Positions 26,892-30,284 of a stretch of DNA of 32,000 nt are shown one piece after another. Every line of letters begins with the position of its first letter. Position 1 is the first letter of the stretch. The position numbers and the translations under genes were made by a program. This stretch comes from Candidatus Thorarchaeota archaeon (lineage in GTDB: Archaea > Asgardarchaeota > Thorarchaeia > Thorarchaeales > Thorarchaeaceae). The stretch lies in the NCBI GenBank assembly GCA_008080745.1, contig SHMX01000001.1, forward strand, positions 210,001 through 242,000, written 5' to 3'. The notes below the pieces were generated by a model. The model saw only the letters and a program-made list of their open reading frames with translations. It was not told the origin of the DNA and made no database searches.

Positions 26892-27302
26892 ATGGTTATG
26901 GCGGATACATTCACCATGAAGCTAGATGAGATTCAACCAAGTCAATTATACATTAGCCAAAAAAAGTTGAAAAAAATAATGAAACTCTTTGAAAAGGATT
27001 TGACACATCTAATTCCACCCATCCCAATTAAGCAATTAGATGGCCATATGATGTCTACAGACGGACATACTCGTAGTCTGGCCTGGTATTTGAATGGATA
27101 TACCCAAGTTGAATGCGAATGGGAAGACTCTGACTTGGATTGGGAAGCATATAGTATCTGTATCAGATGGTGTATAGAGGAGGGAATCCATTCAATTATC
27201 AATCTAAAAGAACGAATAGTTCCACATGATCAGTACAAAATAGTCTGGTTGGAACGATGTCAGATTATGCAAGATGAGTTAGCGAAAAAACGTGACATCT
27301 AA
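26892..27302 (+). CDS. ParB/Sulfiredoxin-like N-terminal domain protein
   Basis: IQPSQLY...PIPI...DGHTR motif. Confidence 0.7.
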   Translation: MVMADTFTMKLDEIQPSQLYISQKKLKKIMKLFEKDLTHLIPPIPIKQLDGHMMSTDGHTRSLAWYLNGYTQVECEWEDSDLDWEAYSICIRWCIEEGIHSIINLKERIVPHDQYKIVWLERCQIMQDELAKKRDI

Positions 27303-27348
27303 TTCTTTTTTAACCATTGTTAATATATTTATATGGAGATGTACTCCA

Positions 27349-27591
27349 TTGACTGGCGAATATGATGTAAAAAAAACAATCGATTGTATTGAGAAGACCT
27401 GTTCTGATTTAGTGAGTGACACAAGCGATGCCATGAAGAGCATGGAATCCAACGACTATATCGAAATTCTATCCGATTATGAAGATGCTGAAGATGAATT
27501 GAAAAAGTTGGTATTGGATACCCAGCACGAACTGGTACGGATATTTGAAGAAGAAAATGATGTCAAACGATTTATTCTTCGCAAAATTTAA
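27349..27591 (+). CDS. Divergent TusA/SirA-like protein (CPxP replaced by CSDL)
   Basis: TIDCIEKTCSDL...IEILSD...RFILRK aligns by eye to the neighbouring TusA. TTG start 27349 preceded by GGAGA. Confidence 0.7.
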   Translation: MTGEYDVKKTIDCIEKTCSDLVSDTSDAMKSMESNDYIEILSDYEDAEDELKKLVLDTQHELVRIFEEENDVKRFILRKI

Positions 27592-27692: not shown

Positions 27693-27702
27693 AGTGATAA
27701 CG

Positions 27703-27942
27703 ATGAGTGTCCACAAACCTACAGATTCTCTAGACTGTATCGGACTCTTTTGTCCGCAACCGCTCTTTCAGACAAGAGAAGCAATTGATGCCCTGGAATC
27801 AGGTGAAGTTCTTGAATTACTGACTGATGACCCTGCATCCGAAGAAGACATCAAACGGTTCGCTAAGAGGACAGGACACGAACTATTGTTCTTTCAGCAA
27901 ATGGATGATGGTTCATTTCGTTTTCTAATCAAGAAGAAATAG
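27703..27942 (+). CDS. tusA: Sulfur carrier TusA/SirA family
   Basis: LDCIGLFCPQPL...LLTDDPASEEDI. ATG 27703 follows GTGA; the alternative start is GTG 27694. Confidence 0.92.
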   Translation: MSVHKPTDSLDCIGLFCPQPLFQTREAIDALESGEVLELLTDDPASEEDIKRFAKRTGHELLFFQQMDDGSFRFLIKKK

Positions 27943-28305
27943 GTGATACAACTGAACTCGATATTATATGTACAGACAAGCGATGACCCAGAGAGACAAT
28001 ACTCTCCTGTTGTCCTAGCACTTAGTGCAAAAGCTATGGATATTGATGCCAAGATATACTATCTTGGACAAGGACTGAGAATACTCAAACCAGGAGAGGC
28101 AGATAAAATCAAAATGGGGGACTTCCCCAGTTTGAAAGAGATGTTACAAAAGGCGATATCTCAAGGAATTCCAGTCTACGTCTGTGAAGCATCAAAACAG
28201 ATGTTGGGATGGGACAAAGTAGAATTTGACTTGGATCTCAAAATCGTAGGTGCTGCAACACTCAACGACCTCACTCTAGAAGCAGATGCGACTATGTGGT
28301 TTTAG
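27943..28305 (+). CDS. DsrE/DsrF family protein
   Basis: P...LALSAKAMD...IYYLGQG...VYVCEAS...GAATL. Confidence 0.88.
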   Translation: MIQLNSILYVQTSDDPERQYSPVVLALSAKAMDIDAKIYYLGQGLRILKPGEADKIKMGDFPSLKEMLQKAISQGIPVYVCEASKQMLGWDKVEFDLDLKIVGAATLNDLTLEADATMWF

Positions 28306-28314
28306 GAGGAACAG

Positions 28315-29496
28315 ATGATGGACGAGGTATATCTAGATTATCAGTCAGCAAAACCCGTTGATCCCAGAGTGCTGGAGCTGATGCGTCCATATTTCACAAA
28401 ACACTATGGAAATCCTTCGGCCTTACATAGTATTGGAGATAGAGCAACTGAAGTATTGGAAAAGAGCAGAGAAAAAATTTCTCGGTTCATTAATGCAGAC
28501 CCAGGCGAGATAATCTTCACCTCGGGAGCTACTGAATCAAATAATATGGCACTAATAGGATATGCTCTTAGGAATAAGAGGAAAGGAAATCATATTATCA
28601 TTTCAGAAATTGAGCACATCTCGATAAGAAATATTGCAAAGTATCTTGAGCGAGAAGGATTCAAAGTTACCAGAGTGCCTGTAAACCTCTATGGTAGGTT
28701 GGATATAAAAAAGTTAGAACGGAGAATTACACCTGAAACAATCCTAATATCTGTGGGATATGCAAATAACGAGATTGGGACGATTCAGAGTGTTTCTAAG
28801 ATTGGCAAGCTTGCTGAAGAGAGAGGAATTGCATTCCATACTGATGCGGTGGCTGCAGAAGGGTTAATTCCCATTGATGTGAAACGAGATCACATTCACC
28901 TCATGTCACTTTCTTCTAATGATCTCTATGGACCCAAAGGAGTGGGTGTATTGTACATGAAAAAGAAGTATCGTGTCAATCCATTGATTATAGGAGGAGG
29001 TCAAGAGAGAGGTCTCAGATCAGGCAGTGAAAATATGCCGGGAATAGTTGGAATGGGGTACGCTGCGGAGATAACTCAGAAGGAGATGAAAAAAGAGAGC
29101 GAAAAGCTCGAGAAGTATCGGGATCGACTAATCAAAGAACTATTGGAGATTCCAGATAGCTATCTCAACGGCCATCCCACTAAACGTTTACCAAACAACG
29201 CACATGTGCGATTTGAAGGACTAGAGGGTGAGGCATTACTACTATCATTCAAGGACAAGGGAATTGCAGTATCGACTGGCTCTGCATGTACATCGAAGAC
29301 CCTCGAACCATCTCATACACTAATAGCAACTGGATTGACCCATGAAGAGGCCCATGGATCACTTCAGCTAACCCCTGGACGATTTACACAAGATGAAGAC
29401 ATTGATCGGATTTTGGATGCGACACCAGAAATTGTGCAGCGTCTTCGAGAGATGTCTCCGATTTACAAACCAAAGGAGAAGATGATATCAAAATGA
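28315..29496 (+). CDS. iscS: IscS/NifS-family protein with PLP Schiff-base Lys replaced by Asp
   Basis: YGNPSALH, FTSGATESNN, EH, HTDA, GGGQERG, STGSAC (catalytic Cys). SSNDLYGPKG replaces the usual SxHKxYGPKG. Confidence 0.92.
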   Translation: MMDEVYLDYQSAKPVDPRVLELMRPYFTKHYGNPSALHSIGDRATEVLEKSREKISRFINADPGEIIFTSGATESNNMALIGYALRNKRKGNHIIISEIEHISIRNIAKYLEREGFKVTRVPVNLYGRLDIKKLERRITPETILISVGYANNEIGTIQSVSKIGKLAEERGIAFHTDAVAAEGLIPIDVKRDHIHLMSLSSNDLYGPKGVGVLYMKKKYRVNPLIIGGGQERGLRSGSENMPGIVGMGYAAEITQKEMKKESEKLEKYRDRLIKELLEIPDSYLNGHPTKRLPNNAHVRFEGLEGEALLLSFKDKGIAVSTGSACTSKTLEPSHTLIATGLTHEEAHGSLQLTPGRFTQDEDIDRILDATPEIVQRLREMSPIYKPKEKMISK

Positions 29497-30284
29497 AATC
29501 AACACAATACTCAGAGAAAACTCTAGACCACTTTAGAAATCCCAGAAATGTCGGTGTTCTTGAAGGAAACGACGTGGCGGTAGGACGAGTAGGCAATCCC
29601 ACCTGTGGAGACCTCATGGAGGTCTTCATAAAAGTGAAGAATGTAGACGGGGTTGACATCATAGAAGATGCAAAGTTCCGTACCTTTGGTTGTGGATCTG
29701 CTATTGCTACAAGCAGTATGACAACTGAGATGGTAAAGGGAATGTCGCTGGATGAAGCTCTAGAGATAACCAGAGACGATGTAGCAACTGAACTTGATGG
29801 ACTTCCTCCTATCAAGATGCACTGCTCCAATTTAGCTGCTGATGCACTCCATGAAGCCATTAAGAACTACCAAGCTGCAGTTGAAAAAGAGATAGAACTA
29901 CCTGAAGATGTACCCTCTGCACCCAGCTGTATAATTGGTAGGGAGGAATTTTTGGATAGAGGAGTATACCATTCAGTCATCATGGATATTGACGAATTTG
30001 AAGACAAAAGAACATTGGTACTTCATACCGGTGACGAATCAATTGATATGGCACTTGAACTAACATCGGTCACAGAACGGGTAATCTTACTCACCCCCGC
30101 AGAAATGATTCACACCACAGAGGAACTTGCAGAAGAATTAGCCAATTCAAGTGTGAAGGTATTGACTCAATCACGTTTACTTGAGGTGCGTGGTGAGTTT
30201 GAGGTTGAGCGGGTCCTAGTCAAAAATTTGGATGAGGACGAGGATTACGAACTACATGTTGATGCGGTTGTCATAATCGATTAG
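29493..30284 (+). CDS. iscU: IscU/NifU scaffold fused to a degenerate thioredoxin-reductase NADPH-binding domain
   Basis: N-terminal HFRNPRNVG, NPTCGD, FGCGSAIA and KMHCSNLA. C-terminal GREEFLDRGV...RTLVLHTGDESIDMALEL...VRGEFEVERV...LHVDAV. Confidence 0.88.
   Translation: MKSTQYSEKTLDHFRNPRNVGVLEGNDVAVGRVGNPTCGDLMEVFIKVKNVDGVDIIEDAKFRTFGCGSAIATSSMTTEMVKGMSLDEALEITRDDVATELDGLPPIKMHCSNLAADALHEAIKNYQAAVEKEIELPEDVPSAPSCIIGREEFLDRGVYHSVIMDIDEFEDKRTLVLHTGDESIDMALELTSVTERVILLTPAEMIHTTEELAEELANSSVKVLTQSRLLEVRGEFEVERVLVKNLDEDEDYELHVDAVVIID

Follow-up and report, generated by a model that had tools for sequence, protein, structure and literature searches.

The IscU-X gene and its two domains

Here we describe a gene in a 32,000-nucleotide stretch of a Candidatus Thorarchaeota genome (contig SHMX01000001.1, positions 210,001 to 242,000; hereafter the window), which encodes an iron-sulfur (Fe-S) cluster scaffold of the IscU type fused to a second, C-terminal domain that we call X. 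The IscU-X gene (29493-30284, on the forward strand like all features below unless stated otherwise) comprises 263 codons plus stop, and its ATG overlaps the stop codon of an IscS gene (ATGA). Its product consists of an IscU domain (aa 1-132, 29493-29888), an interdomain linker (aa 133-148, 29889-29936) that carries Cys146 (29928-29930), and X (aa 149-263, 29937-30281), with a net charge of about -20. Upstream lie genes for a TusA-family sulfur carrier (27694-27942), a DsrE-family sulfur transferase (27943-28305) and an IscS of the Archaeoglobus fulgidus type (28315-29496). An antisense open reading frame of 158 aa over the IscS/IscU junction (29384-29860, reverse strand) turns up in relatives only because the sense genes opposite it are conserved, and we do not regard it as a gene.

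The N-terminal part is a complete IscU, as a preliminary description of this DNA had proposed. Residues 5-130 match the Pfam family NifU_N (PF01592) with an E-value of 9e-48 and 162.1 bits at a cut-off of 22, and the ligand residues C38, D40, C67, H110 and C111 are all present and invariant across 31 aligned relatives. The score against the narrower equivalog TIGR03419 is 181.3, slightly under its cut-off of 187.9. A Foldseek search with the N-terminal half retrieved IscU structures, namely 7c8m (63% identity) and that of A. fulgidus (4eb5_C, 60%). As judged from these features, the domain is a putative scaffold, predicted to support the transient assembly and transfer of Fe-S clusters. The protein is not a NifU proper: the score against TIGR02000 is 145.5 bits at a cut-off of 273, and the match is limited to positions 3-123 of 290. 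NifU likewise combines an IscU-type N-terminal scaffold with one or more C-terminal domains, which assume accessory roles of the ISC system (PMC13066941). However, the domain added here is unrelated, and IscU-X has neither the [2Fe-2S] ferredoxin-like middle domain nor the Nfu domain.

An AlphaFold2 model of IscU-X, built on 31 relatives, reached a mean predicted local distance difference test (pLDDT) of 83.5. It contains the IscU domain (residues 1-132), a linker that is disordered between residues 134 and 144 (pLDDT below 50) and a confidently predicted C-terminal α/β-domain (pLDDT 85-92). Although both domains are confident, the predicted template modelling score of the whole chain is only 0.49. 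Thus, IscU and X have no fixed mutual orientation in the model, which points to a flexible tether. The linker is 15-36 residues long and, in the 31-sequence alignment, has a mean pairwise identity of 0.17, compared with 0.76 for IscU and 0.52 for X. A linker Cys is found in 150 of 163 distinct full-length fusions, at a variable position, and is absent in the remaining 13.

Fold, lost motifs and ancestry of X

The preliminary description had recognized, in the approximately 120 residues that follow IscU, the sequence pattern of thioredoxin reductase (TrxR, TrxB), and this assignment is borne out by sequence and structure. Residues 148-261 align with positions 118-232 of the 300-position model TIGR01292 (thioredoxin reductase) at an E-value of 1.3e-14, and the C-terminal 123 aa scored alone reach 2e-15. 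In a phmmer search against the PDB, all matches of X were NAD(P)H domains, from TrxR, TrxR-like ferredoxin-NADP reductase (FNR) or AhpF, and a profile of the X family found 2zbw as its best match (3e-15). Foldseek returned the NAD(P)H domains of the same three enzymes (E-values of 1e-10 to 1e-11 over ~120 columns), with a root mean square deviation of 1.7 Å over 119 columns for 1fl2 and of 2.7-2.8 Å over 122 columns for 3lzw and 6gas. A TrxR-type fold is thus present in the C-terminal region, a point on which the earlier assignment could have failed. As a complete family member, X falls short: it scores 53.7 bits at a TIGR01292 cut-off of 343, and the Pfam family Pyr_redox stays under threshold (16 bits vs 22).

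For a survey of motifs, the 163 fusions were aligned to this genome's own canonical TrxR. The alignment confirms that YHSVIMD (aa 159-165, 29967-29987) stands where TrxR carries its CxxC, and that HTGDES (aa 178-183, 30024-30041) occupies the place of the dinucleotide-binding loop (GxGxxA or GGGxSA), here degenerate; both placements had been proposed before. No fusion has a Cys at the CxxC position, and the core of X is free of Cys in 158 of the 163. The first Gly of GxGxxA has become His (78), Tyr (43) or Asp (35) and is a Gly in none, while 160 fusions keep the second Gly and 157 have Ser in place of the Ala. At the position of HRR, the motif that binds the 2'-phosphate of NADPH, the protein in the window reads TPA (aa 201-203, 30093-30101), and the consensus is T-P-(E/D), with Thr in 158 fusions, Pro in 114 and Glu or Asp in 108. 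The FAD domain is missing altogether, as the final strand of the NAD(P)H domain is also the end of IscU-X. X therefore shares the fold with TrxR and lacks the other three of four features, i.e., the FAD domain, the CxxC and the GxGxxA/HRR motifs. Having neither an FAD domain nor a redox Cys nor an intact dinucleotide site, X can do no redox chemistry, and TrxR-type catalysis by X is excluded. In this respect, the earlier notion of a redox-dead module stands. A conserved acidic β-hairpin, LDEDEDYEL (30228-30254), is a further mark of the family: D247, E248, Y252, E253 and L254 are at least 90% conserved among the 31 relatives, and in a pattern scan the motif by itself retrieves archaeal and bacterial fusions. 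The domain as a whole is strongly acidic, to which the hairpin contributes, with a median net charge of -19 (-11 in bacterial members, whose range reaches 0). The corresponding values are -1.5 for 52 TrxR-like NAD(P)H domains and -4 for the IscU to which X is joined.

One element of the preliminary description is probably wrong, namely that the CxxC had been stripped from a TrxR. Among full-length TrxR-like proteins, about half of the top scorers against the X profile have no CxxC, and these CxxC-less (FNR-type) proteins share with X a GV(Y/F)Y.V.D..F segment that is one residue shorter than in TrxR. A quick maximum-likelihood tree of 78 domains recovers X as monophyletic, with a support of 97 in the Shimodaira-Hasegawa-like approximate likelihood ratio test (SH-aLRT). 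The TrxRs with CxxC form a separate clade (support 98) that leaves X outside, and X is placed among the CxxC-less TrxR-like proteins without a resolved exact sister. Tree position and segment length do not support the loss of a CxxC from TrxR; it was probably never present in the X lineage, and what X has probably been stripped of is its nucleotide site and flavin domain rather than a disulfide. There is good support for X being what is left of a CxxC-less TrxR-like (FNR-type) flavoprotein, namely a relic of its NAD(P)H-binding domain.

Compared with the NAD(P)H domains of TrxR, FNR and AhpF (2ZBW, 3LZW, 6GAS, 1FL2), X has the same fold and a collinear sequence over ~115 residues; it differs in being joined to IscU instead of inserted in a flavin domain, in its degenerate loop and HRR, in its charge and in forming a clade of its own. 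With the FNR-type members (2ZBW, 3LZW), it agrees only in the absent CxxC and the GVYY.V.D..F segment, their FAD domain and NADPH motifs being absent in X. X is thus homologous to these enzymes but not a member of their family. One candidate for a full-length TrxR-like protein specially close to X (L129, 36% identity) turned out to be an ordinary TrxR with CATC, GGGDSA and HRR.

X is under strong purifying selection and is not decaying. Between the window and its closest relative (G299), the ratio of nonsynonymous to synonymous substitution rates (dN/dS) is 0.023 for X and 0.048 for IscU. Such strong conservation fits a repurposed docking or regulatory domain, as the preliminary description had suggested. 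Of this suggestion, the inability to perform TrxR chemistry holds up and the selective constraint agrees with it, while any docking partner is a proposal (see the last section).

An assembly artefact, by frameshift or chimera formation, was considered and rejected: the fusion is conserved in relatives, with more than 160 distinct full-length copies from independent assemblies including closed chromosomes. Neither did a stand-alone X protein emerge, as matches of 96-198 aa in the search of representatives mostly begin at an internal Met of IscU (MHCSNLAADAL...) and represent truncated gene calls. In three metagenome-assembled genomes (MAGs) of uncultured Actinomycetes/Actinomycetota (L106, L110, L128), the IscS and IscU-X genes are broken up into overlapping frames, most likely through sequencing indels and not as natural splits. 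A 198-aa remnant at another locus (L037, G240:C171, 4998-5594, minus strand) starts at about residue 70 of IscU and keeps the C-terminal helix and X. The N-terminal IscU part is found there in no frame and neither IscS nor TusA lies upstream. This locus may be a pseudogene or a rearrangement breakpoint.

The cassette, its distribution and its relatives

In every locus that extends far enough upstream, in archaea and bacteria, the fusion is preceded by IscS and TusA. Of the loci surveyed, 36 have DsrE; it is missing from ~8 cassettes with X. The usual order, TusA-DsrE-IscS-IscU-X, is the same in both domains of life. In the window, the TusA protein (Pfam TusA, E-value of 1.3e-24) carries the Cys of its CPxP motif at position 20 (codon 27751), and the DsrE protein (Pfam DsrE, 2.7e-16) has Cys81 within VCEAS (codon 28183). 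The TusA motif D..GL.CP.PLF, including the CPxP Cys, and the VCEAS Cys of DsrE are at least 90% conserved. Among 55 loci, we found no fifth conserved neighbor such as a ferredoxin, a thioredoxin or a protein with a flavin domain, and no recurring gene for an electron donor, frataxin, IscX or an IscA-like protein. The other recurring neighbor 'families' in these loci are antisense shadow open reading frames or lineage-specific genes. That IscU-X is the scaffold subunit of a self-contained four-gene cassette for Fe-S assembly and sulfur relay is well supported. The preliminary description, which treated the protein by itself, needs this context, a mobile cassette with a desulfurase-dead IscS, which shapes any mechanism.

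Some loci depart from the common arrangement. A 1.4-Mb Asgard genome (L133, G001:C1:1174474-1184836) has TusA-DsrE-IscS-IscU with a plain 131-aa IscU and an IscS that reads SANS (Lys to Ser), and another genome (G041) pairs an SSND-type IscS with a plain IscU and no TusA. These X-less variants show that X is an addition to an existing module. We also rejected the idea that X is strictly tied to TusA and DsrE, since the G001 cassette has no X and other cassettes have X and no DsrE.

Two further genes adjoin the cassette in the window. An open reading frame of 99 aa directly upstream of TusA (27292-27591, forward strand) encodes a distant TusA paralogue (~29% identity) in which TC..L replaces CPxP. 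A 136-aa protein (26892-27302, forward strand) has no Pfam match; its DGHTR motif is reminiscent of the ParB/sulfiredoxin fold, and five other Thor-type loci (L042, L073, L099, L117, L121) have a homologue close to the cassette.

The cassette IscS matches Pfam Aminotran_5 (E-value of 6e-73), and its best PDB match is A. fulgidus IscS2 (4eb5/4hvk, 1.6e-143), with which it shares an identical SSND motif (28912-28923). Here, Asp203 (28921-28923) takes the place of the lysine that binds pyridoxal phosphate (PLP) in the S-x-H-K motif of desulfurases. All 45 cassette IscS proteins examined, from archaea and bacteria, have SSND and keep the Cys loop (S/T)GSAC (STGSAC in the window, 29272-29289). In A. 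fulgidus IscS2, the corresponding residue is Asp199; the protein has no desulfurase activity and is thought to provide a Cys ligand to the IscU cluster (PMC8918507). By analogy, the cassette IscS (hereafter IscS*) would make no sulfur from cysteine and would serve mainly as a Cys ligand and platform for the IscU cluster, the sulfur presumably coming from sulfide or another donor.

IscS* is not the only protein of its kind in this genome. A second pair (G000:C4:330131-331767; L044, L138) consists of an IscS2 with DAHR (Lys to Arg), ending in an acidic, His-rich tail, and a plain 121-aa IscU; no TusA or DsrE lies within 5 kb of it. The genome also has a SufS-like gene with a normal SVHK motif (C2:280198-281331). 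A Loki-type genome (L134, G243:C132) has, in addition to the cassette, two tandem plain IscU genes and a canonical IscS (SAHK) 2.5 kb upstream; several genomes of family f9 hence carry both active-type and inactive-type systems.

A protein search returned more than 120 full-length clusters with 67-94% identity from Thorarchaeota or Lokiarchaeota, annotated only as 'Fe-S cluster assembly scaffold protein', with the second domain listed for few matches. We then searched 300 genomes of the phylum for full-length matches. The fusion occurs in ~66 of 76 genomes of the family to which the window belongs (f1), in ~62 of 68 of f9, and also in f24 and f30; f22 has it on one short contig only, and the remaining families have plain IscU only. 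IscU-X is the main form of IscU among the Thor- and Loki-type Asgard genomes covered by this search. When GTDB species genomes were scanned with a pattern, the fusion appeared among archaea in Thor-, Prometh- and Hermodarchaeota and in Methanobacteriota MAGs. Bacterial carriers belong to Actinomycetota (including Gaiellales and Coriobacteriia), Aerophobetes, Spirochaetota, Aminicenantes, Thermodesulfobacteriota and Eubacteriales (Bacillota), and some of their contigs measure 0.1-1.4 Mb (up to 1.37 Mb). In the ESM Atlas, a 458-member 'scaffold protein' cluster, mostly bacterial and with NifU_N in 100% of members, matches X structurally at a TM score of 0.92. Archaeal and bacterial X sequences interleave in the tree, and Thor-to-bacteria identity (55-59%) equals Thor-to-Loki identity. 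Together with the occurrence in bacteria, these observations point to repeated inter-domain transfer of the cassette between Asgard archaea and anaerobic bacteria.

The core of the cassette is an A. fulgidus-type, MIS-like IscS-IscU pair. The closest solved relative is the (IscS2-IscU)2 complex of A. fulgidus (PDB 4EB5, 4EB7, 4HVK; D199K variant 4R5F), which has the same SSND and keeps the Cys loop. The IscU domain of IscU-X is 60% identical to AfIscU, and both cores are made of two proteins without chaperones or ferredoxin. With an Asp-for-Lys IscS that retains its Cys loop and is encoded beside IscU, the window belongs to this class. However, the matched AfIscU chains end after 135-138 residues and have no X, and TusA and DsrE upstream are a feature of the present cassette, the comparison with A. 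fulgidus covering the proteins. The MIS system (MisS-MisU) of anaerobic archaea and bacteria is likewise a pair of an IscS-like and an IscU-like protein without chaperones, A-type carrier or ferredoxin (PMC13066941). The window fits this locus type, as only TusA and DsrE recur beside the pair in the 55 loci, an assignment made by gene content. It differs in that its MisS-like protein has no catalytic lysine; moreover, the account of MIS in that review has no IscU with a TrxR-like domain and no fixed association with TusA and DsrE. Full-text literature searches, including this 2026 Fe-S review, found no description of the fusion or the cassette, in line with the earlier remark that the fusion is unfamiliar from characterized ISC systems. 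The IscU-X fusion and its cassette are thus apparently undescribed, while the type of the core system is already known.

Possible roles of X in cluster assembly

With this information at hand, we considered how X might act. We tentatively favor, at somewhat less than an even chance, that X is a non-redox acidic docking module, most likely for the conserved basic patch of IscS*. On its disordered tether, usually with one Cys, X would act as a protein-docking module within the assembly complex and would bind in cis to the basic patch beside the Cys loop of IscS*, the counterpart of the CyaY/IscX site in E. coli. Docked in this way, it would hold the scaffold on IscS* and stabilize the complex, and it may order or gate the hand-over of sulfur carried by TusA/DsrE, or of sulfide, to the cluster site. 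With 15-36 residues, the linker should be long enough for X to reach back from the end of the C-terminal IscU helix.

This preference rests on several observations: the charge of X, the basic patch of IscS*, the flexible tether, co-variation between the proteins, and the X-less IscU of the second pair, which is partnered by a different IscS. Of 45 cassette IscS proteins, ~40 retain basic residues at +13, +14 and +17 relative to the Asp; counted from Lys206, these positions correspond to R219, R220 and R223 of E. coli IscS. There, R220E and R223E abolish the binding of CyaY and of IscX, each of which can bind IscS together with IscU, while TusA and IscU do not bind simultaneously (PMC2854127). 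CyaY (frataxin) and IscX are themselves acidic and use a patch formed by R116, R220, R223, R225 and R237 (PMC2854127). X resembles them in its acidity and in the retention of equivalent basic residues by its IscS, to which it would bind; it differs in having neither homology nor a common fold with them and in being covalently tethered to IscU. In partial Mantel tests over 29-37 cassettes, the divergence of X tracked that of IscS (0.24-0.37, p≤0.003) and of DsrE (0.45, p=0.001) to a degree that the remaining components do not account for, and did not track that of TusA; as these tests are liberal with related sequences, the result is only suggestive.

Several points weigh against docking on IscS*. 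A. fulgidus IscS has the basic patch too, although its IscU partner lacks X, so that the patch does not discriminate. The X-less G001 cassette, with its SANS-type IscS, makes X an add-on and not a requirement. Faster-evolving proteins correlate trivially in a liberal test, and the strongest correlation is with DsrE, yet ~8 X-bearing cassettes do without it. At least 83% conservation persists at the second Gly, the Asp and the Ser of the former nucleotide loop, β2 is followed by an acidic residue, and some ligand binding is possible. Finally, the contact between X and IscS* is one we infer, the models covering single chains only.

The preliminary description had mentioned the recruitment of a reductase, which we regard as one option among several and not the favored one. 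In a broader form, X would bring an electron donor from outside the cassette, be it a ferredoxin, a thioredoxin or a flavoprotein, to the scaffold, either to reduce sulfane sulfur or to couple clusters, a task that falls to Fdx in ISC and to the central domain in NifU. The 55 loci show that the cassette encodes no donor of its own, and in genuine TrxR and FNR the NAD(P)H domain adjoins the partner-binding region. Moreover, the sulfur on TusA and DsrE is at the S0 level and needs reduction (PMC11094781). Nonetheless, we consider this role unlikely, as the segment equivalent to the CxxC helix, which neighbors the thioredoxin docking site, is among the least conserved parts of X, as ferredoxins and many thioredoxins are acidic like X itself (about -19), and as a cassette that crosses domains would more easily use partners it carries. 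Somewhat less probable still is a role as a metabolic sensor, in which X would adjust Fe-S assembly by binding a small ligand such as NAD(H), ADP or another phosphate compound at the Rossmann remnant. The fold is intact in the AlphaFold model and by Foldseek, G180, D181 and S183 are retained in 160, 136 and 157 of the 163 fusions, and a Glu or Asp two positions after β2 (108 of 163) is what NAD-specific Rossmann folds have. Against this stand the replacement of the first Gly by His, Tyr or Asp, the loss of the basic residues for the 2'-phosphate and the subthreshold Pyr_redox score; besides, Asp and Ser are standard in TrxRs at these positions and may be inherited structural residues.

Acidity itself could serve iron. 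We judge it improbable that X binds and delivers Fe2+ to IscU as a functional analogue of the acidic ridge of frataxin, even though the strong acidification is specific to the X family, the LDEDE.YEL hairpin is conserved, and no frataxin, IscX or IscA-like gene lies in the cassette. X shows no metal-site geometry and no His/Cys cluster, its bacterial members are far less acidic (median -11, reaching 0), and docking on a basic patch explains the acidity equally well. Very improbable, finally, is that X has no function beyond that of a relic, spacer or solubility tag, or that the fusion is an artefact. No catalytic motif survives, and frameshifts split the gene in some nanopore-derived MAGs (L106, L110, L128), but a dN/dS of 0.023 and an identity of ~50% between archaeal and bacterial X, at 17% in the linker, are at odds with a relic, and the artefact is refuted by the more than 160 full-length fusions from independent assemblies.

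Docking on IscS* can be extended to a scheme for the whole cassette, which as a complete chain we consider rather unlikely, though less so than any of the four alternatives above. The cassette would be a mobile, cysteine-independent Fe-S line in which sulfane sulfur from TusA/DsrE, or sulfide, passes to the Cys loop of the dead IscS, with X as an analogue of frataxin/IscX that gates the hand-over on the IscS patch and a swinging linker Cys as fourth ligand or persulfide relay. For this Cys, a role as an extra cluster ligand or persulfide relay is speculation.

Fe-S biology has yet to explain where IscS-IscU pairs with an inactive desulfurase get their sulfur and electrons from (PMC8918507, PMC13066941). 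The cassette unites candidate answers in one conserved, portable operon, i.e., two sulfur carriers, an inactive IscS and a scaffold with a selected domain, and it can be expressed and tested as a unit. X illustrates clearly how an enzyme domain can be left without any cofactor and, on the favored reading, turn into a charged docking surface. The Thor- and Loki-type Asgard hosts are relatives of the eukaryotic host lineage, and the boundary between archaea and bacteria appears to have been crossed several times. If the gating scheme is true, IscU-X would be a fifth accessory solution for IscU-type scaffolds, beside Fdx, CyaY, IscX and the NifU domains, and one present in the closest archaeal relatives of eukaryotes.

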